The notes under the pieces were generated by a model, which did no database searches, was not told the origin of the DNA, and saw only the letters and a list, made by a program, of their open reading frames with translations. From Acidobacteriaceae bacterium (lineage in GTDB: Bacteria; Acidobacteriota; Terriglobia; Terriglobales; Acidobacteriaceae), in contig PMUM01000330.1 of the NCBI GenBank assembly GCA_003166855.1, forward strand, positions 541 through 64,540: DNA of 64,000 nucleotides. The letters run 5' to 3'. Shown in pieces: positions 8,574 to 64,000 of the stretch; position 1 is the first letter of the stretch; each line of letters opens with the position of its first letter. A program made the translations under genes and the position numbers.

Positions 8574-8595
8574 TCCCTAAACTTTTTTGTCTTGT

Positions 8596-8665
8596 CATCC
8601 TGAACGAAGTGAAGGATCTATGTACTCTCGGGAAAGTACATAGATCCTTCACTTCGTTCAGGATG
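8596..8665. repeat. perfect 31-bp-stem hairpin (REP family 1); probable transcript-end structure after the PPIase gene
   Basis: CATCCTGAACGAAGTGAAGGATCTATGTACT, an 8-nt loop, then the exact reverse complement. It generates the mirrored pseudo-ORFs 8470..8652 and 8609..8791. Confidence 0.7.
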
Positions 8666-8813
8666 GCAGCGCTAATTTGCGGGTCGGTTTCACTGTTGTG
8701 TGTTCCAACTCGGAGGCCGGGTGATATGCCGCACCTGTCCCGAAAATCCCCCTCCGTGGCAGTTGTAAATCCCCTGTTTTCAATTGATTAGAAATCGGAA
8801 AGATCATTGCCTT

Positions 8814-26616: not shown

Positions 26617-26818
26617 GTCATCCTGAGCGGATGGGAAGTTCGCGAACGCGAACTTCCCACCCAGTCGAAGGATCCCTATGGCTCCCGCAGTCCTGACGAT
26701 CGAGACAGGTCTTCTATGGTTCTCAGGAACTACCTGCTACATTGTCGGTCGTGATAGGGATCCTTCGACTCCGTGACTGCTTCGCATTCTGCGAAGCAGT
26801 CACTCCTCTCAGGATGAC
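26617..26818. repeat. pair of REP family 1 elements in inverted orientation (BIME-like composite)
   Basis: Left copy 26617-26680: GTCATCCTGAGCGG-[hairpin GGGAAGTTCGCG/CGCGAACTTCCC]-TCGAAGGATCCCTATG. Right copy 26754-26818: ATAGGGATCCTTCGA-[hairpin GTGACTGCTTCGCA/TGCGAAGCAGTCAC]-CTCAGGATGAC. Confidence 0.7.
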
Positions 26819-31636: not shown

Positions 31637-33697
31637 CTACTGCTGAGGCGTTTCGGTTGTCGGCGGAGCCGGTGTGATCGAAGGTAGATCCTTTCGCGGC
31701 GCCACGTGCGGAACATTGGGCGTGCTCGTCACATGTCCCCTAGCGGCGTCGTCAATGCTGATGCCGGCGTGATCGAGCGTAGTACCAACCGCGCGGTCAA
31801 GTTCGATCCGCGATTTTTCGTAGGCGGCCATAGCCGACATCAACGTGGATTCCGCGGTTGCCAGCGCACTCTGCGTCTGCAGGACAGCCGTCGTGGTCGA
31901 GGTACCGAACTGATACTTCTTCTGTTCGGCGTCCAGAGACTGCTTGGCATAATCCACCGCGGCTTGGGCGGAGGCTACACTGGCTCGGTTCTGTTCGACT
32001 CCGAACTGGGCGTTGCGGACCTCGATGTTGATCTTGTTCTCGGCTTGCTGCAATGCCATCTGGGCCTGCTGATACTCGAGTTCCGAGCGGATCTGAGCGG
32101 ACTGGGCTGCCCGGTTGCGTAGCGGGATATTGAGTTGCAAGCCGACGCCTTTGTCGGGAGCTGTAGAGTTGACGAGCTGGTTAAGAGTGGCCCCGTAGCC
32201 GACTGACGTCACTGGCGTGGTGGCGCAGCCGAAGCCCTGCAATGAGGGGTCAAGATTCGAGCAAAGGTTCGCCGGATTCTGGGAGCCGCCTACGCCTGCA
32301 CCGCCATAGTAGCCGTACAGGTCGAGAGTGGGGAGAAGAGCATTGCGCACCGCCTTATTGCTCAGTTCAGTGGTGTTGAGTTGGATGCGGGACTCCACGA
32401 GTTCGGCGCGATGCTGCAACGCGTTAGCAACCAGATCCTGAGTGGGTTGGATCGGTTCATTCGGTGGAATTTCCATGGTGGACGTGGGAATCACTTCCGC
32501 GCCCGCCAGAGTCTGATCGCGCAGGGTACGGCTGAGCGCGTTTTTCATGAGCAACTGCTGCAATTGCAGGTTGGTCAGGGCAATGGTCAGAACTTGCTGG
32601 TCCTGGGCGACCGTGCTCTGAGCGCGGACCACCTCGATAGGGGCCAGGCTGCCGATTTCCACCTGCTTCTTGGTGTCCGAGAGTGTCTTCTGCGCAAATG
32701 CCAGCGATTCTTGCTGAACGCGAGCGTTTTCGTATGCGTAGACGAGATCCCAGTACATCGTCTGAATCTGATTGACGGTCGTAATGATCTGCAAGCGGAA
32801 GGCCACGTCGGAGATCTCGCGATTGTTCTTGGCAATGCGGATGAAGCGGGTGTTGGCCGCAAACCCAAACCCTTGAAGAAGATGTTGAGTGACCTGGGCT
32901 CTGAAACTCGAGTTCAGCGCCGGACTGAGGCTTGAGAAGAAGCTGTTGGTGGTATTGCGGCCGTTATTGAATCCCACCGATAGGTTCGTGCCCCACTGAA
33001 AAGCCTGTTGGTAAGCGAAGTTCACGGTGCCGGTGTTTTGAGCCAAGCTTGAGCCTGGCAGCACACCTTGAAAAATACTCGTCGCCTGTTGACTGAAATG
33101 ATCCTCTTGCAGGGTACCGGTGAGTATGGGATCGAAGCTGTTGATTAGAGAACCAATGCCCAGCGTGGAACCGTTCAGGCCACCAACGCCGGCTCCTGCG
33201 CCACCCGCTCCGAGGCTTGTGCCACCCGTGCCAGAGCCAACCTGCCCGCCGAGGCCGCCGACGCCGCCACCGGGAGTGTTTTGCACAATGCCGATGGGCA
33301 CACCCAGAACGGCCGCGCCCGCCTTGGAGCGGAGGATATCGGTATCGGCGATATTAAGGTTGTAGCGCGCGATGGCGATGTCCAGGTTGTTCTCGAGCGC
33401 GAGCGCGATGGCGTCGTTCAAAGAGAGATAGAGCTTGCCATCGTGCATGAGTTGGTCGATGCGTGCCGTATTCGACAAATTCGGCGCCGACAGGTACCGC
33501 GACTTGTAGGGCGCGATTGGATTAGGAAAATGCGACACTGGCTTGGCGTAGTTCAGGATGGGCAGCGGCTGGTTGGCTGGCAGCTGAGGCATCGGGGCAG
33601 CGACTGACTCCTGGCCCCAGCACGCGGCGGTCATTGTTACGAAAAGGCTGGCAGCGGCGGCGAGCCGGACGGTCGACATCAAGCATGGGAATGGCAT
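31637..33697 (-). CDS. TolC-family outer membrane efflux protein, paralog 2, with Gly-rich insert
   Basis: 686 aa with signal peptide. Long blocks identical to paralog 1 (FIRIAKNNREISDVAFRLQ, LNQLVNSTAPDKG). Insert: NTPGGGVGGLGGQVGSGTGGTSLGAGGAGAGVGG. Confidence 0.8.
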   Translation of the reverse strand: MPFPCLMSTVRLAAAASLFVTMTAACWGQESVAAPMPQLPANQPLPILNYAKPVSHFPNPIAPYKSRYLSAPNLSNTARIDQLMHDGKLYLSLNDAIALALENNLDIAIARYNLNIADTDILRSKAGAAVLGVPIGIVQNTPGGGVGGLGGQVGSGTGGTSLGAGGAGAGVGGLNGSTLGIGSLINSFDPILTGTLQEDHFSQQATSIFQGVLPGSSLAQNTGTVNFAYQQAFQWGTNLSVGFNNGRNTTNSFFSSLSPALNSSFRAQVTQHLLQGFGFAANTRFIRIAKNNREISDVAFRLQIITTVNQIQTMYWDLVYAYENARVQQESLAFAQKTLSDTKKQVEIGSLAPIEVVRAQSTVAQDQQVLTIALTNLQLQQLLMKNALSRTLRDQTLAGAEVIPTSTMEIPPNEPIQPTQDLVANALQHRAELVESRIQLNTTELSNKAVRNALLPTLDLYGYYGGAGVGGSQNPANLCSNLDPSLQGFGCATTPVTSVGYGATLNQLVNSTAPDKGVGLQLNIPLRNRAAQSAQIRSELEYQQAQMALQQAENKINIEVRNAQFGVEQNRASVASAQAAVDYAKQSLDAEQKKYQFGTSTTTAVLQTQSALATAESTLMSAMAAYEKSRIELDRAVGTTLDHAGISIDDAARGHVTSTPNVPHVAPRKDLPSITPAPPTTETPQQ

Positions 33698-33709: not shown

Positions 33710-33762
33710 GTTCGTTAGTACTAGTTCGTTAAAACCAGTTCGTTAACACCAAGTTCGTTTAA
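33710..33762. repeat. four direct repeats of (A)GTTCGTT(A)A with 14-15 nt period, 13-65 nt upstream of the tolC paralog 2 start
   Basis: GTTCGTT at 33710, 33724, 33738 and 33753. On the coding (minus) strand these read TAACGAAC x4 and end just before GGAG and the ATG. Confidence 0.6.
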
Positions 33763-38907: not shown

Positions 38908-39246
38908 TTGGCGACTGGCGAAGTGACCACTTCCAATACCCAGAATATTCCGCAGCTTCCCAACCATAAGGTGAAGGTCAAGAAGGCCGGGCAGCGCGCC
39001 TGCAACGAGAAAAACGAGAAGGGAAAATTCTGCGGCGGGCACTTGAAGCTCTGGTTTTATATGACCGACGCGGTCGAGCGCGAGTGCGGCGACGTCGAGA
39101 AAGCCTGGGGTCCGAAGGCGGAAGTGTATCGCTGCGAAAACTGCAGGGCGCTGTATCTGCCAACGCCGGGCGAGACCAAGATCAACGTCGCGGGGCAGGG
39201 GATGATTTCGGTGTTCGGGTTGACGCTGCCGCCGAAGGAGAAGTGA
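38908..39246 (+). CDS. hypothetical small Cys-containing protein
   Basis: 112-aa ORF with a TTG start and 5 Cys including CENC. Coding status is uncertain. Confidence 0.35.
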   Translation: MATGEVTTSNTQNIPQLPNHKVKVKKAGQRACNEKNEKGKFCGGHLKLWFYMTDAVERECGDVEKAWGPKAEVYRCENCRALYLPTPGETKINVAGQGMISVFGLTLPPKEK

Positions 39247-39247
39247 G

Positions 39248-39391
39248 GAAGCTTCTAGCTGCTAGCTAAGGCGCAGTGCGATTCATTCTGGGGATCCACC
39301 AACGCAAGCCGAGCTTTGCTCGGCGGACAGCCGAAGGCGGCTGTCCCCACATGAGTTTTGCTAGGAGCTAGCCGCTAGAAGCTAGCAGCTG
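39248..39391. repeat. composite: tandem heptamer arms (AGCTnCT x3 / CTAGnAG x4) flanking a REP family 2 copy (39308-39355)
   Basis: Left arm GAAGCTTCTAGCTGCTAGCTAAG. Right arm CTAGGAGCTAGCCGCTAGAAGCTAGCAGCTG ends 5 nt before ATG 39397. The arms are largely complementary. Confidence 0.65.
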
Positions 39392-39396
39392 TTTCC

Positions 39397-40644
39397 ATGA
39401 ACACTCCTGACCTCATTTACGACTGGAACAAGAATCATCCGCCTGGGTTGAAGCCGCCGGGGCCGGTGCTGATCAATGACGAGACCTTGCGCGATGGGCT
39501 GCAGTCGCCGTCGGTGCGCGATCCTTCGATCGCGGAGAAGATTGAGATCCTTCATCTGATGGAGGCGCTGGGGATCCACTCTCTGGCGTTGGGATTGCCA
39601 GGGGCCGGGCCACGCGCGGTGGAGGCTGTCACTGCGCTCGCGCGCGAGATCGCGGCGCACAAGATGAAAATTCGCGCCAACTGCGCGGCCCGAACGCATG
39701 AGAACGACATCCGCCCAGTCGCCGAGATTGTCCAGAAGACGGGGTTGTCCATCGAGGCCGCGACCTTCATCGGTTCCAGTCCGATCCGCAGATTCACCGA
39801 AGGATGGACGGACGATTTTCTTCTGCACACGACAGAGAAGGCCGTGAAGTATGCCGTCTCGCTCGGGCTCGACGTCATGTACGTCACCGAAGACACGAGC
39901 CGGTGCGATCCGGAGACGGTCAAGCGGTTGTACACGGCGGCGATCAACTGCGGCGCCCGGGCCGTCTGCATTTGCGACACGGCCGGGCACGCCACGCCCA
40001 TGGGCGCTCTGGCGCTGGTGCGGTTTGTGATTGCGGAATGCGTGAAGCCCTCGGGCGAGAACATTCGTGTCGATTGGCATGGACATAGCGACCGCGGCCT
40101 CGCGATCGCAAATTCGATGGCGGCCATCATTGCTGGCGCAAATTGCGTGCACGGCTGCGCGATTGGCCTGGGTGAACGCGTCGGCAACACGCAGGTGGAT
40201 CAGATGCTCGTCAATCTGAAACTGATGGGCATTGCGCCCTGGGATCAGCAGGATCTGACGAAGCTCAAGCAGTATTGTCAGGCGGTGTCGCGGGCAACCG
40301 GCGTGCCGATTCCGGCGAATTATCCGGTGGTCGGTGACGATGCCTTCCGCACCGCAACCGGTGTGCACGCGGCGGCAATCATCAAGGCATATCACAAAGA
40401 CGACGTCGTGCTGGCGAATACAGTCTATTCGGGCGTGCCCTCGCACGTCTTTGGGCTGGAGCAGATCATCGACATCGGTCCGATGAGCGGAAAGTCGAAC
40501 GTGCTGTGGTGGCTGGAGCGGCACGGCATCCCGGTGAGTGACGGAATCGTCAACCGCATTTACCAGCGAGCCAAGCAGAGCGACCACACGCTGAGCGAGG
40601 CGGAAATTCTGGAATGCGTGCCGACCGCGGCGCAGAAGAAGTGA
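39397..40644 (+). CDS. HMGL-like DRE-TIM metallolyase (2-isopropylmalate/homocitrate synthase family, no LeuA regulatory domain)
   Basis: ETLRDGLQSP and WHGHSDRGLAIANSMAAIIAGA (HxH...N metal site) motifs. 415 aa. Confidence 0.75.
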   Translation: MNTPDLIYDWNKNHPPGLKPPGPVLINDETLRDGLQSPSVRDPSIAEKIEILHLMEALGIHSLALGLPGAGPRAVEAVTALAREIAAHKMKIRANCAARTHENDIRPVAEIVQKTGLSIEAATFIGSSPIRRFTEGWTDDFLLHTTEKAVKYAVSLGLDVMYVTEDTSRCDPETVKRLYTAAINCGARAVCICDTAGHATPMGALALVRFVIAECVKPSGENIRVDWHGHSDRGLAIANSMAAIIAGANCVHGCAIGLGERVGNTQVDQMLVNLKLMGIAPWDQQDLTKLKQYCQAVSRATGVPIPANYPVVGDDAFRTATGVHAAAIIKAYHKDDVVLANTVYSGVPSHVFGLEQIIDIGPMSGKSNVLWWLERHGIPVSDGIVNRIYQRAKQSDHTLSEAEILECVPTAAQKK

Positions 40645-56620: not shown

Positions 56621-56795
56621 GCGCCGTCGCTGCCAGACACTGGGTTGCGACCTTTGGGATAGCGAACTTTCGATTTGAGCACGGTTGCCGGGCATCTCGT
56701 AGAATGAAGATAGCCAGCACCCTGACAGAAAAAAGGAAGACACCGGGAGAACTCCCGGCAAAGCAGCACGTAGAAAGACGCGGGAACATTTCGTC

Positions 56796-57860
56796 ATGTC
56801 AAACAACGGATATCATTCAGGCCCGACGCGCAGTCACAACCTCCGGTCGCTGTTCAGCATTTTCTCCAGCGATCTGGCCATCGACCTCGGCACCGCCAAC
56901 ACGCTTGTGTATGCGCGCGGCAAAGGGATCGTCGTCAACGAGCCTTCCATCGTCGCCATCAACAAGAACACGGGCGAAGTCGAGGCCGTTGGCAAAGAGG
57001 CGAAAGAGATGCTGGGCCGTACGCCGGGCAACATTGTCGCCATCAAGCCCATGAAAGATGGCGTGATCGCCGACTTCAAAGTCACCGAGAAGATGTTGAA
57101 CTACTTCATCCAGAAGGCGCACAACCGCAAGATGCTGGTGCACCCGCGCATCGTGATTGGCGTGCCGTCTGAGATCACGCAAGTGGAAAAGCGCGCGGTT
57201 ATGGATTCAGCTTATCGCGCCAAGGCGAGCGAAGTGCACCTCGTCGAGCAGGCCATGGTTGCCGCGATCGGCGCCGGCCTTCCTATCACCGAACCCAGCG
57301 GCAACATGGTGGTCGACATCGGTGGCGGCACCACAGACATCGCAGTTATTTCTTTGAGCGGCATTGTCTATTCGCGTTCCGTGCGTATGGCGGGCAACCA
57401 GATGGACGAAGCCGTCATGAATTACCTGAAACGGAAATATAACTTGCTGATCGGCGAACGTACCGCCGAGCAGATCAAGATGGAAATCGGCTCCGCGCAC
57501 CAGCTCGACAAGCCGATGACCATGGAAATCAAAGGCCGCAACTTGATCGAAGGCGTGCCCAAGACGATCACGGTCGACGACGGCGAAATCCGCGAAGCGC
57601 TCAGCGAGTGCGTTTCGACCATCATGAACGCGATCCGCGTGGCCCTCGAGCGGACGCCTCCCGAGCTCTCCGCCGACATCAGCGACCGCGGCATCGTCCT
57701 CACTGGCGGCGGGGCGCTCCTCAAGAACCTCGACAAGCGTATCCGCGAAGAAACGGGCCTGCCTGTTTCCATCGCCGACGATCCGCTGTGCAGCGTGGTT
57801 CTTGGCACCGGCAAAATGCTCAGCGACTTCAAGCTGCTGAGAAAGATATCGATTGAGTAG
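56796..57860 (+). CDS. mreB: rod shape-determining protein MreB
   Basis: Actin-fold motifs DLAIDLGTANTLVY, VVDIGGGTTD and LTGGGALL. Confidence 0.95.
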   Translation: MSNNGYHSGPTRSHNLRSLFSIFSSDLAIDLGTANTLVYARGKGIVVNEPSIVAINKNTGEVEAVGKEAKEMLGRTPGNIVAIKPMKDGVIADFKVTEKMLNYFIQKAHNRKMLVHPRIVIGVPSEITQVEKRAVMDSAYRAKASEVHLVEQAMVAAIGAGLPITEPSGNMVVDIGGGTTDIAVISLSGIVYSRSVRMAGNQMDEAVMNYLKRKYNLLIGERTAEQIKMEIGSAHQLDKPMTMEIKGRNLIEGVPKTITVDDGEIREALSECVSTIMNAIRVALERTPPELSADISDRGIVLTGGGALLKNLDKRIREETGLPVSIADDPLCSVVLGTGKMLSDFKLLRKISIE

Positions 57861-57974
57861 GTTTCAAGGTTTCAGAGTTTCAAGGTTTCAAGGTGCTGAG
57901 GCTGCGAGTAGATTCTCAAAGTCGCGGCGGCAGTTGGTTCCTTGCAACTTTGAAACCTTGAAACTTTGAAACTG
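57861..57974. repeat. tandem octamer GTTTCAAG x4 and its complement (C/T)TTGAAAC x3 forming a long inverted repeat between mreB and mreC
   Basis: The left arm 57861-57893 starts on the base after the mreB stop. The right arm 57947-57974 ends 7 nt before the mreC ATG. Confidence 0.75.
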
Positions 57975-57981
57975 TTTTCTT

Positions 57982-59250
57982 ATGGAATCCGTACTCGGCC
58001 GCTACCGCAACCTGGTCATTCTTGTAGGAGTGTTGTTTCTGCAAGTGCTCGGGCTGGCCATGCAGGTGAAACGCAGCGGCGGCAACGATGTCGAGGACAC
58101 ACGCCTGATCCGCATCTGGGGCGTCGGCGCCATCACTCCTTTCGAGCGCATTCTAGTCTGGGCCCAAAACAGCACGGGCAATGTCTGGCACAACTACTTC
58201 TACCTCCGCGGCGTGCGTGCCGAGAACCGCCAATTGAAAGAGCAGATCGAGCAAATGCGGCTCGAGCAGGTGCGCCTCAGCGAAGACGCTGCCCAGGCGC
58301 GGCGTCTGCAAACGCTGCTGGCCTTCAAGGAACAATTCATCTCCCGGACCGTGGCTGCACAAGTGATTGGATCCAGCGGCAGCGATCTTTCTCGCATCAT
58401 CTATATCGATAAGGGGGAGAACGCCGGCATCAAGCGCGATATGGCCGTCATGACGTCCGACGGAATCGTTGGCAAGGTCCTCGTCGTCTTTCCGTCGGTC
58501 TCGCAGGTGCTGTTGATCAGTGATCAGAGCAGCGGCGTCGGCGCCATCCTCGAGAAGACCCGCCTGCAGGGAGTCCTGCGCGGTACTGCCAATGGCGAGG
58601 TCGTGCTCGAACGGGTGATGAGCGATGAGCAAGTTCCGGTGGGTGAAACCGTGCTGACCAGCGGCGGCGACCAGATTTTCCCCAAGGGCCTGCCGGTCGG
58701 TACGGTCACGAAGGTCGGAAACGGCAAGGATTTGTTTCTGAATATCAAAATCAAGCCTGCCGCCAACCTGAGCAAACTGGAAGAAGTGCTGGTGCTGGTC
58801 GAGAAGCAGGAACGGCAGGCCATTGCGGAAGACAGCGTGCGCGTCCGCGCCGCCGACATTCTGGCACAACGGCTGCCCTCCGTGCCCGATAAGCCGGCCA
58901 CGGATGCGAACCCGGCTGCGGGAACTGTAGAAGGGTCCGCCAAACCTGCAGTCGCAAAGACCACGGCGAAACCCACGGGCACAGCCGCGACCACAACGCC
59001 TTCTGCCAAGAATCCATCCGGGCTGAGCATTGCTCCCGGCGCGTCCGGAGTGAGCCCAGCAGGGAAGCCCGCCGGGACCTCCGTCGTGAAGAAAAGCGTG
59101 ACCGCCCCGGCCAATCCGCCGACTGGACCAAAGCCGGCCGCAACTCAGACCGCACCCGCAAACGACCAGGCGAAACCGGCTGATCCAATCGCACCCACCG
59201 CGCCGCAGCCTAATCCGCAGCCCCCGCCCAACGAGAGCAGCCCACAATAG
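57982..59250 (+). CDS. mreC: rod shape-determining protein MreC with long Pro/Ala/Thr-rich C-terminal extension
   Basis: N-terminal TM, coiled coil (ENRQLKEQIEQMRLEQVRL) and the MreC beta-domain (GIVGKV..., PKGLPVGTV). The last ~135 aa are low complexity. Confidence 0.9.
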   Translation: MESVLGRYRNLVILVGVLFLQVLGLAMQVKRSGGNDVEDTRLIRIWGVGAITPFERILVWAQNSTGNVWHNYFYLRGVRAENRQLKEQIEQMRLEQVRLSEDAAQARRLQTLLAFKEQFISRTVAAQVIGSSGSDLSRIIYIDKGENAGIKRDMAVMTSDGIVGKVLVVFPSVSQVLLISDQSSGVGAILEKTRLQGVLRGTANGEVVLERVMSDEQVPVGETVLTSGGDQIFPKGLPVGTVTKVGNGKDLFLNIKIKPAANLSKLEEVLVLVEKQERQAIAEDSVRVRAADILAQRLPSVPDKPATDANPAAGTVEGSAKPAVAKTTAKPTGTAATTTPSAKNPSGLSIAPGASGVSPAGKPAGTSVVKKSVTAPANPPTGPKPAATQTAPANDQAKPADPIAPTAPQPNPQPPPNESSPQ

Positions 59251-59251
59251 C

Positions 59252-59773
59252 GTGCCGATCACCTACACATCCAATGAGCAGGTTGAGGTATACCGGTTCA
59301 GTATCCCGGTAACGATTGGCGTGCCGCTGCTGGCGCTCTTTGTGCAGGCATTTCTGCCGCTTCGGTTCCCGCGCTTTGCGGTCTATTTTGACTTGCCGCT
59401 GCTCGTGACCATCTTCTTTGCCATGGCGCGCCGCAGCCCGGTAGCTGGCCTGTTCACGGGAGCCGTCATTGGCCTGGCGCAGGACATGCTGGGCCACAAT
59501 CCCATCGGAATCTACGGAATCGCTAATACCGTGGTGGGGTATGGAGCTTCGTCGTTGGGTGTGAAACTCGACGTCGAAAACGCCGGGGCCCGCCTGCTGG
59601 TTACGTTGGGTTTTTCTCTGATCCAATCCGCGGTCCATTTCACCGTTGCCCGAGGGATGGTCAACATGAACGTGACGTGGAGTTGGCCTCATGTCATTTT
59701 GGGCGGTCTCGCGAACGCGATCCTGGGAGTCGCACTGTTCTTCCTGCTCGACAAATTTAAGCAGAGAACGTGA
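59252..59773 (+). CDS. mreD: rod shape-determining protein MreD
   Basis: 173-aa hydrophobic protein 1 nt after mreC with a GTG start. Called from position and size. Confidence 0.8.
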   Translation: MPITYTSNEQVEVYRFSIPVTIGVPLLALFVQAFLPLRFPRFAVYFDLPLLVTIFFAMARRSPVAGLFTGAVIGLAQDMLGHNPIGIYGIANTVVGYGASSLGVKLDVENAGARLLVTLGFSLIQSAVHFTVARGMVNMNVTWSWPHVILGGLANAILGVALFFLLDKFKQRT

Positions 59774-59777
59774 ACAA

Positions 59778-59978
59778 CAGTTCTCAGTTCCCAGTTCTCA
59801 GTCCTCAGAAAGCAGGGGTGACTTACGTTACTACCCGGCCGAGATCGAATCGTCTGTCTGGATTAGAATCGAATTACAGCAGTGCACCGCAGTTTTCCAG
59901 TCTCGGTGAGCCGCAGGATGCAACCAACCGGAACTGAGAAGCGAGAACTGAGAATCGAGAACTGAGAAGCGAGAACTG
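59778..59978. repeat. tandem heptamer AGTTCTC x4 and complementary GAGAACT/GAGAAKC x7 arms between mreD and mrdA
   Basis: The left arm 59778-59808 starts 4 nt after the mreD stop. The right arm 59931-59978 abuts the mrdA ATG. Confidence 0.75.
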
Positions 59979-61946
59979 ATGTTCGGCCGCGACGAGAAAG
60001 TTTCCGAAGTCCGCCTCACGGCGGCGCAATACATCATCCTTGGCATCTTCCTGATCCTCGCCTACGGACTGTGGAAGCTGCAGGTGATGGAAAGTGGCTA
60101 TTACGCCTCGGCCGCCGAGAAGAATCGCATTCGCAACGTTCCGGTGCTCGCGCCGCGCGGCAAGATTCTCGACCGCGAAGGCCGCACCATCGTCGACAAT
60201 TACCCGTCGTTCTCTGCGCTGCTGCTGCGTGACTCTACTCGCGACCTGATCGGCGATGCGGACCTGATAGCCCAGGGTTTGCATCTTGATCCGAACGAGG
60301 TGCGGGCCCGCATCCGCCACTTCGCGGCGTTGCCGCAGTACCAGCCGATCTTCCTGAAAGAAGACATCACTCCCGACGAGTTGCAGTTCATCGAAGCGCA
60401 TCGCAACGAGTTGCCCGAACTCGACACGATCATGGCGCACCGTCGCCTGTATCCGCGCAACGGATTCATGGCGCACCTGATCGGCTATGTTGGCGAGGTC
60501 AGCGAAGACATGCTGAACCAGCCCCAGTTTGAGCTTTACAACGCCGGCGACGTCGTCGGCATTTCCGGCGTCGAGCGCCAGTACAACACGCTGCTGATGG
60601 GACAGAATGGATCTCGCCAGGCCCTGGTCGATAGCCACGGCCGCGAAGTCGGGCGCCTCGGTGAAACCGAAGCGATACCCGGCAAGCAACTCAAGCTGAC
60701 GGTCGACATCGATTTGCAAATTGCCGCCGAAGAGGCTCTGGCGGGTAAGAACGGAGCCATCGTTGCTATGGACCCGCACACGGGCGAGATTCTTGCGATG
60801 GTGAGCGGGCCATCCTTTGATCCCAACGATTTTGCCGTACACGTGTCGCGCGATCAGTGGAACAAGCTGGTCACCGACCCCGACAAGCCTCTCATGAACA
60901 AAGCAATTCAGGCGCAACTTGCGCCCGGCTCGACCTTCAAGATCATCATGTCGGTTGCTGGCTGGCAGGAAGGGATTGCGCAAGATCTTCACGTGAACTG
61001 CACTGGAGGTGCCGAGTTCTACGGCCGGCGGTTCGGTTGTTGGGTGAAAGGCGGCCACGGACCGGTAACGCTGGAGAAAGCGATCTACCAGTCCTGTGAC
61101 GTTTTCTTCTACACGCTCGCGGAAAAGCTGGGCATCGACCGCATTGCGAAGTACGCGACTGAGTTGGGTCTGGGCCAGAAGACCGGGATCGATCTTCCCA
61201 ATGAAGTGAGCGGAGTCATGCCTTCGGAGGAATGGAAGATCAAGAATTTTAAGCAGAAGTGGTTCGCGGGCGAAACGATCTCTGTCGGCATCGGTCAGGG
61301 CGCAGTTGCAATCACCCCCGTGCAGTTGCTCCGCGCCGTCAGCGCAATCTCCATGGGCGGCCGCATGGTTGTGCCCCACGTTATCAATCCAACGGATGTG
61401 CCGCCGGGCTACGTCGAAGCTGCTCGCTATACGGAGGTGAAGAACGTCCCGATTGACCCGAATGGGTGGACCTTCATCACCGATGCCATGTCGCGCGTTC
61501 TTCTGCCGGAAGGGACGGCTCAGTCCGCCCACATTCCTGGGATCGACATCGCAGGCAAGACGGGTTCGGCGCAAGTTGTCTCCCTGACGACTCGTGCCAA
61601 GTTCAAGAACAGCGAAGATCTGGCGCAGAACGGATGGTTCGTGGGATTCACGCCACGCCGCAATCCCGACATCGTGGTGTGTGTTCTGTTCCAAGGCGGC
61701 GAGCACGGCAAGTTGGCAGCCCGCCTGGCGACTCAGGTAATCAAAGCGTTCGTCGACAAACAACACCGGACCCCGCAGAAGATGGTGGAGAAGCCAAAGA
61801 GCAACAGTACGGTGGATATCGGCGGCCTCTGGACCGAACCCGAGTCCGACGGAGACAAAGAAAAGCTGCAGGGCGGACGCTTCGTGCTCGCTCTCCCCAG
61901 GAAGCCGCTGGCAGTAGCCGTCGCAGCCCCAGGAATGCATCAGTGA
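59979..61946 (+). CDS. mrdA: penicillin-binding protein 2 (elongasome transpeptidase)
   Basis: N-terminal TM, PBP dimerisation domain, and the transpeptidase motifs STFK, a SxD variant of SxN (SCD) and KTGS. Confidence 0.9.
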   Translation: MFGRDEKVSEVRLTAAQYIILGIFLILAYGLWKLQVMESGYYASAAEKNRIRNVPVLAPRGKILDREGRTIVDNYPSFSALLLRDSTRDLIGDADLIAQGLHLDPNEVRARIRHFAALPQYQPIFLKEDITPDELQFIEAHRNELPELDTIMAHRRLYPRNGFMAHLIGYVGEVSEDMLNQPQFELYNAGDVVGISGVERQYNTLLMGQNGSRQALVDSHGREVGRLGETEAIPGKQLKLTVDIDLQIAAEEALAGKNGAIVAMDPHTGEILAMVSGPSFDPNDFAVHVSRDQWNKLVTDPDKPLMNKAIQAQLAPGSTFKIIMSVAGWQEGIAQDLHVNCTGGAEFYGRRFGCWVKGGHGPVTLEKAIYQSCDVFFYTLAEKLGIDRIAKYATELGLGQKTGIDLPNEVSGVMPSEEWKIKNFKQKWFAGETISVGIGQGAVAITPVQLLRAVSAISMGGRMVVPHVINPTDVPPGYVEAARYTEVKNVPIDPNGWTFITDAMSRVLLPEGTAQSAHIPGIDIAGKTGSAQVVSLTTRAKFKNSEDLAQNGWFVGFTPRRNPDIVVCVLFQGGEHGKLAARLATQVIKAFVDKQHRTPQKMVEKPKSNSTVDIGGLWTEPESDGDKEKLQGGRFVLALPRKPLAVAVAAPGMHQ

Positions 61947-61985
61947 ACCAAAAGCGATTCCGAACCGTGGATCCCTCAAGGGAAA

Positions 61986-62025
61986 AGCTAGAAGCTAGGA
62001 GCTAAAAGCTCGAAGCTAGAAGCTG
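61986..62025. repeat. tandem heptamer AGCTAGA x5.5 immediately upstream of rodA
   Basis: AGCTAGA AGCTAGG AGCTAAA AGCTCGA AGCTAGA AGCTG, ending 4 nt (TTTT) before the rodA ATG. Confidence 0.75.
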
Positions 62026-62029
62026 TTTT

Positions 62030-63127
62030 ATGGCACGTTACGTCTCATACCGCGACTTCGACTGGGTCCTCCTGGGCTTCGTGCTCATCATTTGCGGCCT
62101 GGGTGTCATGGAGATTCACAGCGCCACCCAGCACACGAAGTTCGCCGGAGCCCACGTCAAGCAGGTCTATTGGGTTGTGGCCGGCGTCGGCGCAATGTTC
62201 ATCATCAGCTTAGTCAACTATCAGGCGTTGCTCGATCAGATTCACTGGTTCTACATCGCCGGAGTCAGTTCGCTCGTGGCCGTCTTGCTGTTCGGACAGA
62301 AGTATCTGGGAGCGCGACGCTGGATCAAAATGCCCGGTGGCAACCACTTCCAGCCGTCCGAATGGGTGAAGCTCATCCTCATCCTGGCAGTGGCCAAGTA
62401 CTTTGCCGACATGCGCGAACGGGAACTTTCCTGGGCTGATTTTATGAAGGCTGCAGCGATCGTCGGCATCCCCATGCTGATGGTGCTCAAACAGCCAGAC
62501 CTGGGCACTGCTCTTACCTACCTCCCGATTGCGGCCATGGGTGTGTTTCTGGGCGGACTGCAATGGAAGCAGGGGTTAACCGTGGCCCTGCTTGCGACCG
62601 TCGGTTTGGGAGCAGTCTTTTTCATCCCAAGGGTGCACGTCCTGAAGTCGTATCAAAAGCAGCGGTTGACTAGCTTTGTCGACCCTGAACTCGATCCGCA
62701 GGGCTCTGGGTACCAAGTTGAGCAATCCAAGATCGCCGTGGGTTCCGGGGGCCTGTGGGGCGGCAAAGGCTCGCAAACACACGGTGCGTTCCTGCCGGTT
62801 CCGCAAACGGACTTCATTTTTGCCGCTTTTTCAGAAGAACATGGATTCGTAGGCGCTCTCGGCGTTCTGCTGTTATACTTCATTGTGCTCATGCGTTTGA
62901 CCCAGAACGCGCAAACAGCGCCCGACCGCGCTGGCACGTTCGTGGTGATGGGTGTGGTGGCTGTGCTTAGCTTCCATATCCTGGTCAATGTCGGCATGGT
63001 GGTGGGCTTTATGCCGGTCACCGGAATACCCCTGCCGCTGATGAGTTACGGTGGGTCTTCTGTGTTGTTCATGTTCCTGGCGCTGGGGATGGTTATGAAT
63101 GTTCGTATGCGCCGCTTCGTGAACTAA
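62030..63127 (+). CDS. rodA: SEDS-family peptidoglycan polymerase RodA
   Basis: 365-aa polytopic protein with FtsW/RodA motifs (LQPSEWVKL-type, PVTGIPLPLMSYGGSS). Confidence 0.9.
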   Translation: MARYVSYRDFDWVLLGFVLIICGLGVMEIHSATQHTKFAGAHVKQVYWVVAGVGAMFIISLVNYQALLDQIHWFYIAGVSSLVAVLLFGQKYLGARRWIKMPGGNHFQPSEWVKLILILAVAKYFADMRERELSWADFMKAAAIVGIPMLMVLKQPDLGTALTYLPIAAMGVFLGGLQWKQGLTVALLATVGLGAVFFIPRVHVLKSYQKQRLTSFVDPELDPQGSGYQVEQSKIAVGSGGLWGGKGSQTHGAFLPVPQTDFIFAAFSEEHGFVGALGVLLLYFIVLMRLTQNAQTAPDRAGTFVVMGVVAVLSFHILVNVGMVVGFMPVTGIPLPLMSYGGSSVLFMFLALGMVMNVRMRRFVN

Positions 63128-63587
63128 CTGGTGCTTGGTTAGACGAGCCAGTTAGGACGGAACAGATTCAGAAGCAACGGGTTCAGGAACCAGGAAGAAA
63201 CGGCAGGATTAGCAGTTTGTTGCGCTCGCAGGCGCAACCCCAAGAATATCGATCGCCCTCGCGTTAAGGGGGCATTTCACCGGCTAGTCGAGCAGTAGAA
63301 GGCCGGGCAGGATTGAAGTTGAGCAGTCGGGCAGGGAACGGCCCCCCGACCCTAGTTGGGTCTGAGAGTGCGGTCACAAACCCCGGCAGAAGTTAAAGCG
63401 ATAAGTGCAAAAGATTCCCAAGCTTGTGCAGCGGACTCGGCGCAGAGAAGATCTCTGTAGCCCAGTCTGCCCCCAATTCGGGGCAGCATCGCGACGCTCT
63501 TCACTTCATCCTCCCGCACCTCTTCTGACTCCGCCCCGGTGAAGCCCGACCGACCTCGGTAATGAGTCGGCGGGACCGGAGTGTTCG

Positions 63588-64000
63588 ATGAACAAAGAAC
63601 TATTTGTCTCTTCTACCCCCCACGAAACAAAGGTGGGCCTGGTGGAGGACGATCTGCTCGCGGAAGTCTATCTTGAGCGCGAGAACGAGTACACCCTAGC
63701 TGGATCCATCTACAAAGGCCGCGTAACCCGGGTGCTCCCTGGCATGCAGTCGGCCTTCGTCGACATCGGCCTGGAGCGCGATGCCTTCCTCTACGTTTCC
63801 GACTTCATGGAGTTGGAAGAGCACGACGACGATTTGACCGACGTAGTCCCGGCCAACCGCAACGTGCCCGACCTGCGCCAGCAACCCTCTCGGCTCGAAG
63901 CCCCGGTTTCGATGGATGCTCCTCAAGCGGCCGATGGAACAGAAAGCGATTTGCAGGAGGAATCGGGTCAGGAATTTGTTGAGACCGACGTCCAAGGTGA
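63588..64000 (+). CDS. rng: RNase E/G family ribonuclease, 5' part (runs off the right edge)
   Basis: Not in the ORF track because there is no stop in the window. My translation is MNKELFVSSTPHETKVGLVEDDLLAEVYLERENEYTLAGSIYKGRVTRVLPGMQSAFVDIGLERDAFLYVSDF, the S1-domain N-terminus typical of Rne/Rng. Confidence 0.8.
   Translation, partial: MNKELFVSSTPHETKVGLVEDDLLAEVYLERENEYTLAGSIYKGRVTRVLPGMQSAFVDIGLERDAFLYVSDFMELEEHDDDLTDVVPANRNVPDLRQQPSRLEAPVSMDAPQAADGTESDLQEESGQEFVETDVQG

Follow-up and report, generated by a model that had tools for sequence, protein, structure and literature searches.

Tandem 7- and 8-nt words in stop- and start-anchored arms within the spacers of an acidobacterial mre operon

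For decades, tandem heptamers adjacent to start codons have been on record from cyanobacteria, as the STRR, and more recently also from giant sulfur bacteria, in neither case with an accepted function. Mazel and colleagues reportedly described several tandem heptanucleotide families of the cyanobacterial STRR in 1990. In Beggiatoaceae, and also in some Cyanobacteria and some Bacteroidetes, TAACTGA direct repeats stop about 1 nt short of starts that lack a Shine-Dalgarno sequence (MacGregor, 2015; PMC4679880). In Nostoc PCC 7120, eight copies of GAC(C/T)AAT overlap the start of recO, and at least 13 starts have similar arrays no more than 30 nt away (bioRxiv 10.1101/2022.06.06.494920), while intergenic heptamers of Nostoc include TTGTCAG x3 (that is, CAGTTGT) and CCACTGA-CTACTGA (PMC2408588, table 3); a spacer hairpin has also been reported between hupS and hupL in cyanobacteria (PMC2661322). 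Here we analyzed a window of 64,000 nt (the whole stretch of DNA under study; contig PMUM01000330.1, assembly GCA_003166855.1), in which spacers of the mreB-mreC-mreD-pbp2-rodA genes of cell elongation, and one further spacer, carry tandem 7- or 8-nt words that run up to a start codon.

The likeness to the described repeats is considerable. Like the TAACTGA repeats, which are tandem heptamers in 2-6 copies, intergenic, in forward orientation, zero to a few nt before the start and usually without Shine-Dalgarno sequence, many words found here share an ACTGA/CTG core (GAGAACTGA, CCACTGA, GGCAACTG). The STRR and the Nostoc repeats likewise comprise several tandem heptanucleotide families that are intergenic and in part overlap or lie within 30 nt of starts, with near-identical word types (TTGTCAG, CCACTGA/CTACTGA, and GACCAAT there vs. 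CGACCAA here), and the STRR are highly repeated throughout the genome; here, several families were seen, and four spacers in 64 kb carry arrays. The sequence-only reading of this stretch, which knew of no described element with such properties, therefore has to be withdrawn on this point, since start-adjacent heptamers with nearly the same words (CCACTGA, TTGTCAG, GACCAAT) were already on record. In contrast to the one fixed TAACTGA word, at least 11 families occur here (GAAACYT, GAGAACT, AGCTARA, GGCAACT, CCACTGA and others), and the phylum is Acidobacteriota. Inverted partners are essentially lacking in the genome described with TAACTGA repeats (1 in 170 sets; PMC4679880), whereas at three of the four sites of the window the array is paired with a complement directly after the preceding stop, rodA alone having a direct array only. 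The STRR belong to (heterocystous) cyanobacteria, and the present elements to acidobacterial relatives and phages; a systematic, conserved stop-to-start inverted pair, with turnover and covariation at orthologous junctions, is not described for the STRR or Nostoc repeats. None of these earlier accounts covers the systematic post-stop complement pairing, the conservation of this layout at orthologous junctions with word turnover, or the occurrence in Acidobacteria and soil viral contigs. A full-text literature search for the exact word strings returned nothing relevant.

Spacer elements of the window

The window comes from a soil acidobacterium of the Terriglobia, near 'Candidatus Sulfotelmatobacter', with a G+C content of about 0.59. 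Six arrays of period 7 or 8 with at least 3.5 copies were found in it, vs. a mean of 0.07 and a maximum of 1 in 100 Markov shuffles, and all six fall in four spacers of the 64 kb. The period is 8 between mreB and mreC and 7 in the arrays located by tandem repeats finder (TRF) at 59778-59808, 59931-59979, 61985-62024 and 39360-39390. The tandem-word feature is real, non-random and conserved. The mreB-mreC spacer, 121 nt long, is laid out as follows.

57858-57860, + strand: stop codon TAG of mreB; the first word of the 5' arm begins at the next base
57861-57894, + strand: 5' arm, GTTTCAAG GTTTCAGA GTTTCAAG GTTTCAAG GT, period 8, about 4.5 copies (TRF, 57859-57894; inverted-repeat finder)
57895-57939, + strand: loop with a small stem of its own, GCUGCGAG...GUCGCGGC (RNA fold)
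57940-57974, + strand: 3' arm, CCTTGCAAC TTTGAAAC CTTGAAAC TTTGAAAC TG (TRF, fold, inverted repeats)
57975-57981, + strand: T-rich tail TTTTCTT (sequence)
57982-57984, + strand: ATG of mreC, without Shine-Dalgarno sequence (sequence)

The 3' arm ends in CTG and complements the 5' arm in several registers; the repeat finder recovered inverted repeats of 25-26 nt with 92% complementarity in three registers (I6, I7 and I13). The minimum free energy (MFE) of the fold was -56.2 kcal/mol, compared with -31.2 +/- 3.6 kcal/mol for shuffled sequences (z -6.88; 0 of 200 shuffles as good). Because the registers are degenerate, the centroid structure lacks the long stem and the MFE structure has a low ensemble frequency. 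The sequence-only reading had described a 121-nt spacer in which an octamer repeated four times follows the stop at once and is matched by a complement that ends 7 nt short of the ATG, with pairing over about 25 bp in several registers, and all of these coordinates, as well as the pairing, were borne out.

The genes of the operon, all assigned by Pfam, are these.

56796-57860, + strand: mreB
57982-59250, + strand: mreC
59252-59773, + strand: mreD
59979-61946, + strand: PBP2 gene (pbp2)
62030-63127, + strand: rodA

Within this operon mreC and mreD are directly coupled (stop 59248-59250, start 59252). A gene for RNase E/G lies downstream of rodA, an adjacency that carries no evidential weight. 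Between mreD and pbp2, the parts of the second inverted element are the following.

59771-59773, + strand: stop codon TGA of mreD (sequence)
59771-59808, + strand: mreD stop and 5' arm, CAGTTCT CAGTTCC CAGTTCT CAGTCCT CAG (TRF, fold, inverted repeat I2)
59809-59930, + strand: loop with two conserved blocks
59818-59831, + strand: loop block GTGACTTACGTTAC, common to all word-family lineages
59863-59869, + strand: loop block TTAGAAT, -10-like (TTACAAT in other lineages), common to all word-family lineages
59931-59984, + strand: 3' arm, (GAACTGAGAAGCGA)x3.5, ending ...GAGAACTG on the ATG (TRF, fold, I2)
59979-59981, + strand: ATG of pbp2, directly abutted by the 3' arm (sequence)

Pairing in I2 starts within the stop codon (GAACA) and reaches over ATGTTC at the start, and the spacer (59774-59978) folds at -69.6 kcal/mol (z -2.8). 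The loop blocks GTGACTTACGTTAC and TTAGAAT may constitute an internal promoter or regulator site for pbp2-rodA within the hairpin loop. The third inverted element lies at a second site, upstream of a gene of the HMGL-like (isopropylmalate/homocitrate synthase) family according to Pfam.

39244-39270, + strand: stop TGA (39244-39246) of an upstream open reading frame (ORF) of 112 aa, and 5' arm GGAAGCTTCTAGCTGCTAGCTAAG (fold, inverted repeat I17)
39271-39359, + strand: loop with two small G+C-rich hairpins, 39308-39324 and 39325-39346 (fold)
39360-39399, + strand: 3' arm GCTAGGA GCTAGCC GCTAGAA GCTAGCA GCTG, then TTTCC and ATG (TRF, fold)

This spacer (39247-39396) folds at -72.2 kcal/mol (z -4.6), and the first base of the spacer pairs with its last in the MFE helix. 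The fourth site precedes rodA.

61983-62032, + strand: direct heptamer array AGCTAGA/AGCTAGG/AGCTAAA/AGCTCGA/AGCTAGA/AGCTG, then TTTT, then ATG of rodA (62030), without inverted partner (TRF)

No complementary block was present in the pbp2-rodA spacer of the window, and its fold was not significant (z -1.8). The proposal that the mreB-mreC architecture recurs elsewhere was thus correct for 59778-59978 and 39248-39391, which are inverted, and not for 61986-62025, a direct array only. The ending in ...CTG, 0-7 T-rich nt and ATG, noticed at the outset, occurs at all four sites. In agreement with the same early description, the elements do not code for protein, resemble a class and are linked to stop and start codons.

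The mreB-mreC spacer and the others were identical in four independent assemblies (two from ENA and two from JGI), one of which differs at 62 of 11,019 positions outside the spacers; the repeats are therefore no assembly artefact. Among these near-identical strains no variation in word copy number by slippage was seen. Sense-strand stops were moderately enriched in the 3' arm (2.5 vs. 1.6 expected at mreC); stops in all three frames had to be rejected as a rule, as all frames are closed in only 14-55% of spacers, and amount to a trend only.

Layout and words in relatives and viral contigs

Scanning with MreC yielded 80 species-level genomes of Acidobacteriaceae, Ca. Sulfotelmatobacter and metagenome-assembled Terriglobia, with 63-92% MreC identity; an MreC protein search gave a best 120 matches that were all at least 74% identical. 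For the second site, metagenomes were scanned with the downstream HMGL-like protein, which gave 72 distinct spacers. Junction helices were predicted as duplexes between the first and the last 60 nt, at most, of each spacer and counted from 18 bp upward.

The orthologous operons do carry the repeats. Nearly all mreB-mreC spacers of the relatives have 7- or 8-mers directly after the stop and the reverse complement directly before the ATG, and the mreD-pbp2 spacers show the same pattern with differing words. A helix of at least 18 bp was predicted in 78 of 81 mreB-mreC spacers (median 33 bp, offsets of 1 nt from the stop and 4 nt from the start), in 73 of 73 mreD-pbp2 spacers (median 36 bp, offsets of 3 nt and 3 nt) and in 69 of 72 second-site spacers (offsets of 1 nt from the stop and 5 nt from the start). 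Overall, 0-6 nt separate the predicted helix from the upstream stop and 0-8 nt from the ATG, which it sometimes covers. Empty sites are nearly absent at orthologous junctions.

The arms co-vary within each genome, since an arm pairs far better with its own partner than with that of another species or with a shuffled arm. Cognate, non-cognate and shuffled arm energies were, respectively, -39.9, -23.0 and -16.2 kcal/mol at mreB-mreC, -42.3, -26.9 and -22.1 kcal/mol at mreD-pbp2, and -34.3, -24.1 and -17.8 kcal/mol across the 72 second-site spacers. At pbp2-rodA the values for the relatives (cognate -18.9 vs. non-cognate -17.8 kcal/mol) indicate no arm complementarity; there, the arrays end a median of 5.5 nt before the ATG and begin a median of 76 nt after the stop, so that single arrays are anchored to the start and not to the stop.

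The words themselves turn over quickly. The pairs found at mreB-mreC in relatives include the following.

5' GTTTCAAG, 3' CTTGAAAC
5' GAGCYRY, 3' GCTCAWA
5' CAGTTTC, 3' GAAACTG
5' CAGTTGC, 3' GGCAACTG
5' CAGGGGY, 3' CCCCTGA
5' CAGTGGY, 3' CCACTGA
5' GAGTCCC, 3' GGGACTC
5' CAGTACC, 3' GGTACTG

About 11 recurring families are scattered over the MreC+MreD tree (79 leaves), with about 50 changes between adjacent leaves, and wholly different words can occur between species whose MreB is 99% identical. Second-site words vary as well (AGCTTCT/AGCTAGA, GCTCTTA/AAGAGC, GAGCYRY, GTACC, GCTGTCA). Occupancy and geometry are hence kept across well over 100 lineages while the sequence turns over, and the elements are fast-evolving palindromic, non-coding spacer cassettes. 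The most conserved part of the repeat unit is the dinucleotide CT. A final CTG stands 0-8 nt before the ATG in 58 of 80 mreC, 67 of 73 pbp2 and 62 of 69 rodA spacers, and abuts the pbp2 ATG directly in 47 of 73 distinct spacers. A Shine-Dalgarno-like motif at the proper distance was found in 0/80 mreC, 13/73 pbp2 and 3/69 rodA spacers, consistent with the early remark on its absence; many other genes of the window do have one.

The sole essentially empty second-site orthologue is L288, whose 18-nt spacer CTTGCCGGCAGTTTTTCC is a mini-palindrome that retains the T-rich tail and may be the remnant of a deletion between the arms.

The same words occur in viruses. A scan of IMG/VR with exact words returned 128 arrays, the loci with CCACTGA, GGCAACT or GAGAACT arrays having mostly a G+C of about 0.6-0.7 and those with GAAACYT about 0.3-0.6. 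In array orientation, 52 arrays have the start of a long ORF no more than 30 nt downstream, vs. 22 in reverse, and a complementary partner lies upstream in 40 and downstream in 14. Several contigs, e.g., L106, L161 and L167, show the full layout of stop, [CAGTGGT]n, loop, [CCACTGA]n and ATG. Four of the contigs (L106, L161, L141 and L112) each contain several such hairpins; phages of soil bacteria therefore use these elements as well. Within 10 kb, L106 (IMGVR_UViG_3300047586_000106) shows four matches to CCACTGA arrays, of which at least three have a complementary partner, and the arrays of L161 exceed 100 nt.

Possible roles of the elements

Sequence anatomy, predicted helix, conservation, covariation and positional rules are shown by the analysis. 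We propose, with a probability of about 0.4 and thus tentatively, that the start region is masked by the helix until the terminating ribosome and/or RNase III opens it, translation of the downstream gene being coupled or metered in this way; that RNA rather than DNA is the active form, like every step of the mechanism, is what we infer. Since the layout is kept while the words change fast, the elements probably control expression of the downstream gene, and the early suggestion of RNA structures that set the relative translation or stability of elongasome components is a plausible one.

According to this coupling model, the arms would be made at the DNA level by tandem amplification of a 7-8-nt word and held complementary, the words being frequently replaced out of a limited vocabulary. 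In the operon mRNA, the arms would pair into about 25-36 bp of helix, closing the entire intercistronic spacer, bringing stop and start side by side at the base of the helix and masking a start region that has no Shine-Dalgarno sequence. The footprint of a terminating ribosome extends about 10 nt past the stop and would therefore enter the 5' arm; covering and melting roughly the first 10 nt of that arm, the ribosome would free the start-proximal word or words and the AUG for re-initiation, a structural form of translational coupling. Alternatively or additionally, RNase III might cut the duplex, because 25-36 bp are its default substrate, thereby unmasking the start and separating the cistrons. 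The start-proximal A/C-rich array, which stands alone at rodA, would be the initiation-side module and the complementary array after the stop its mask, and gain or loss of whole words would offer cheap tuning of helix length.

Duplexes of at least 20 bp are substrates of RNase III, and other systems offer well-documented cases of coupling by way of a masked start region; starts masked or unmasked in this manner, by coupling or RNase III, include those of RNA phage coat/replicase, the lambda N leader and E. coli adhE. The predicted hairpins, with a median of 33-36 pairs against a required duplex of about 20 bp, are long enough for RNase III, and the start region is sequestered by pairing in the predicted helices. 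As in those systems, the downstream start would lie in a helix opened by upstream translation or RNase III. However, the masking strand there is usually unique sequence within the upstream coding region, whereas here both strands consist of non-coding words and the helix spans the spacer.

The coupling model is favoured by the helix geometry at the three junctions, the covariation of arms within a genome, the occupancy kept through sequence turnover, the starts that lack a Shine-Dalgarno sequence, the start-side anchoring of single arrays, the orientation and partner counts of the viral arrays and the direct coupling of mreC and mreD in the same operon. Several observations weigh against it. 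The occupancy counts are drawn from related lineages and are hence phylogenetically dependent. A missing Shine-Dalgarno sequence is no rarity in this genome, mreB itself having none, and the viral contigs L112, L116 and L120 show the same layout with a normal Shine-Dalgarno sequence between the 3' array and the ATG. In many relatives a GTTTCAAG-type hairpin, of which the window has no copy, directly follows the stop of the gene upstream of mreB, and is followed in turn by a conserved promoter-like block and no start codon. Owing to the -10-like box in the mreD-pbp2 loop, some transcripts may hold the 3' arm alone. Selection for an unstructured start-proximal array was rejected, as shuffles matched for composition show no more structure than the 3' arrays alone; the self-structure of the 3' arm is only modestly below that of the 5' arm. 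Sense and antisense duplex energies are nearly equal, and unbiased arm alignment gave G:U to A:C counts of 87:56, 35:43 and 37:33 at the three sites. Sense/antisense stability and wobble counts, taken in three ways, were inconsistent between sites and gave no consistent sense-strand RNA signature. The arms look homogenised at the DNA level and their mismatches look neutral.

The lack of a consistent sense-strand signal makes a selfish or neutral DNA-level origin a serious rival, although we consider it somewhat unlikely. Palindromic DNA would arise by heptamer slippage with inverted duplication or template switching, or by MITE/REP-like insertion, and have no dedicated function; harmless forms alone would persist, and the hairpin adjacent to stop and start would be the form tolerated in coupled operons. 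Mismatches with G:U about as frequent as A:C, and frequent transversions, would fit recently homogenised DNA palindromes in neutral decay, as would the replacement of whole spacers between species of 99% identical MreB and the presence of other dispersed palindromic elements in the same spacers. Tandem repeats in 1.03 Mb of related DNA are dominated by period 7 (293, vs. 50 of period 6 and 107 of period 9). What speaks against this origin is near-universal occupancy (78/81, 73/73 and 69/72) down to 63% MreC identity despite complete sequence turnover, for mobile junk is usually polymorphic for presence and absence, together with the strict rules for position, polarity and start-side anchoring of single arrays. 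In addition, elements that share a word but lie at different sites have unrelated loops, and so are not copies of one element. The period-7 dominance fits a heptanucleotide repeat excess known in some bacteria (Mrazek, 2007, as cited in PMC4679880), and identical words occur in viral contigs and cyanobacteria (PMC2408588), both of which would again suit a selfish or neutral origin.

Known dispersed repeats offer only a partial parallel to the elements of the window. In the Correia/NEMIS elements of Neisseria, in ERIC and in REP/REPIN, which are palindromic intergenic repeats that undergo co-transcription and processing, a single consensus is dispersed in copies that show transposition signatures or have an associated RAYT; RNase III cuts Correia hairpins, and the elements may carry promoter-like boxes in their core. 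Lengths of 70-200 bp, inverted ends of 25-35 nt and long RNA hairpins within operons are shared, but the present arms consist of short words in tandem, occupancy of the orthologous junction is nearly constant and the spacer is filled exactly from stop to start. Membership in REP/REPIN or MITE families was rejected on account of the unrelated loops of same-word elements within one genome (L001) and low word sharing; no obvious target-site duplication was seen at the stop and start flanks. The spacers of one genome have few words in common (Jaccard 0.02-0.07), with a slight excess for the pbp2/rodA pair only, and neither deliberate word orthogonality between the spacers of an operon nor homogenisation within a genome holds. 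MIRU are also tandem repeats in intercistronic operon spacers that preserve the coupling of flanking genes; unlike the present words, their units are 40-100 bp long and encode small ORFs overlapping stop and start, with neither hairpin nor 7-8-nt words. Inspection of the spacer sequence revealed no MIRU-like small ORF.

It is unlikely, in our view, that the elements are mRNA 3'-end modules, i.e., partial intrinsic terminators, RNase III sites or stabilisers against 3' exonucleases that set the mRNA ratio of the cistrons, with abutment to the start incidental; the RNase III sites of T7 early mRNA, REP and Correia elements are models for such a role. Anchoring of the 5' arm to the stop is constant, also at the site that precedes the promoter-like block of mreB without a start, the stems form long and almost perfect duplexes (25-36 bp), short T-rich runs follow many 3' arms (GTTTT, TTTTCTT, TTTTT), and the phage elements sit between a stop and a normal Shine-Dalgarno sequence. 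An intrinsic terminator, however, has a short G+C-rich stem and a loop of 3-8 nt followed by a U-tract, and was rejected here in view of stems of 25-36 bp, loops of 45-120 nt and the missing T tail at pbp2, where CTG meets ATG in 47/73 spacers. A consensus promoter/terminator scan flagged none of the elements, and arrays without partner stand at starts, not stops.

The start-proximal array might instead be the functional unit, as a periodic mRNA platform that replaces the Shine-Dalgarno sequence for the ribosome (e.g., protein S1) or for an RNA-binding protein, the upstream array being an optional antagonist; a translational role of this type was proposed for the TAACTGA repeats (PMC4679880). 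We regard this as quite improbable. Single arrays do abut starts at rodA, in viral contigs, in Beggiatoaceae (PMC4679880) and in Nostoc (bioRxiv 10.1101/2022.06.06.494920), a limited vocabulary (NNNACTG/CTGA, CCACTGA, GACCAA-type) recurs across spacers, species, phages and phyla, and the unit is best conserved in its CT. Yet at least 11 word families at the same gene are hard to square with a single sequence-specific binder, no protein emerged as a candidate, the arrays show no unusual lack of structure, and in phages a normal Shine-Dalgarno sequence often follows them. Finally, a role at the DNA level, by cruciform extrusion or a DNA-binding protein affecting local transcription, replication or recombination, would agree with strand-symmetric arms without wobble asymmetry, with the promoter-like boxes in one loop and with the altered regulator access caused by promoter heptamer repeats in Nostoc (bioRxiv 10.1101/2022.06.06.494920), but it is highly improbable given the anchoring to stop and start, the restriction to co-directional junctions and the fixed orientation of unpaired arrays, all of which point to the transcript or the ribosome.

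Other repeats and biological meaning

Further repeats and conserved blocks were seen in and around these spacers. A separate palindromic family occupies 8593-8668 and 26644-26789 of the window, e.g., TGTCATCCTGA...TCAGGATGGCA with 37-nt arms of 95% complementarity, and includes a further inverted repeat of the GGGATCCTTCGACTCCG type; TGTCATCCTGA/GGGATCCTTCGACTCCG-type motifs are inserted in the pbp2-rodA spacers of L002, L004, L006 and L011, and look like a dispersed MITE/REP-like element. The hairpins of the second-site loop (39308-39346; GCCGAGCTTTGCTCGGC, GGACAGCCGAAGGCGGCTGTCC) are small, G+C-rich and paired, and they occur in the orthologous loops L211-L238; variants in the pbp2-rodA spacers of L030, L037, L064, L065 and L067 suggest another dispersed repeat family. 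A period-14 array, GTTCGTTAAAACCA x3.5 at 33710-33759, ends about 12 nt upstream of the ATG of a minus-strand gene (31637-33697), with a GGAG Shine-Dalgarno sequence in between, and is thus a start-proximal array with a longer unit.

Upstream of mreB, at 56683-56760, a block GGTTGCCGGGCATCTCGTAGAAT...CCAGCACCCTGACA with a small hairpin CACCGGGAGAACTCCCGGC is strongly conserved in all relatives. Canonical -35/-10 boxes were rejected there, and because TTGCCG and TAGAAT are only 9 nt apart, the block is called promoter- or leader-like only. Downstream of rodA, the RNase E/G gene is preceded by a leader of about 460 nt (63128-63588), which contains blocks common to relatives, has no Rfam match and may be an autoregulatory rne 5' untranslated region. 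Across the whole window, Rfam gave 0 matches at gathering score, and no tRNA or tmRNA was detected by the respective scan.

The elements thus present the heptamer phenomenon in a sharper, more testable form, in a major soil phylum and in soil viruses, where the array and its complement turn the whole gap between two operon genes into one stop-to-start helix. It is conceivable, though improbable, that heptamer hairpins are a general, so far unrecognised expression device of Terriglobia, phages and possibly other phyla, in which a modular helix built from a small word vocabulary, its length tuned by words, would loop out the spacer and so pass the terminating ribosome straight to a start without Shine-Dalgarno sequence, as a bacterial analogue of ribosome shunting or hopping; the cross-phylum words (xxACTGA, CCACTGA, GACCAA) would then be the mark of a trans-acting partner that is conserved, be it the ribosome or a dedicated protein, and the STRR and TAACTGA repeats, known since 1990, would at last have a function. 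Should the elements prove to be selfish DNA, their strict positional tolerance would make them an unusual class of palindromic repeat all the same. If they are functional, they would represent a new, evolvable way to couple or meter expression in essential operons, here that of the cell-elongation machinery, and would provide a clear annotation feature for Acidobacteria as well as a handle on what recognises or generates heptamer repeats.

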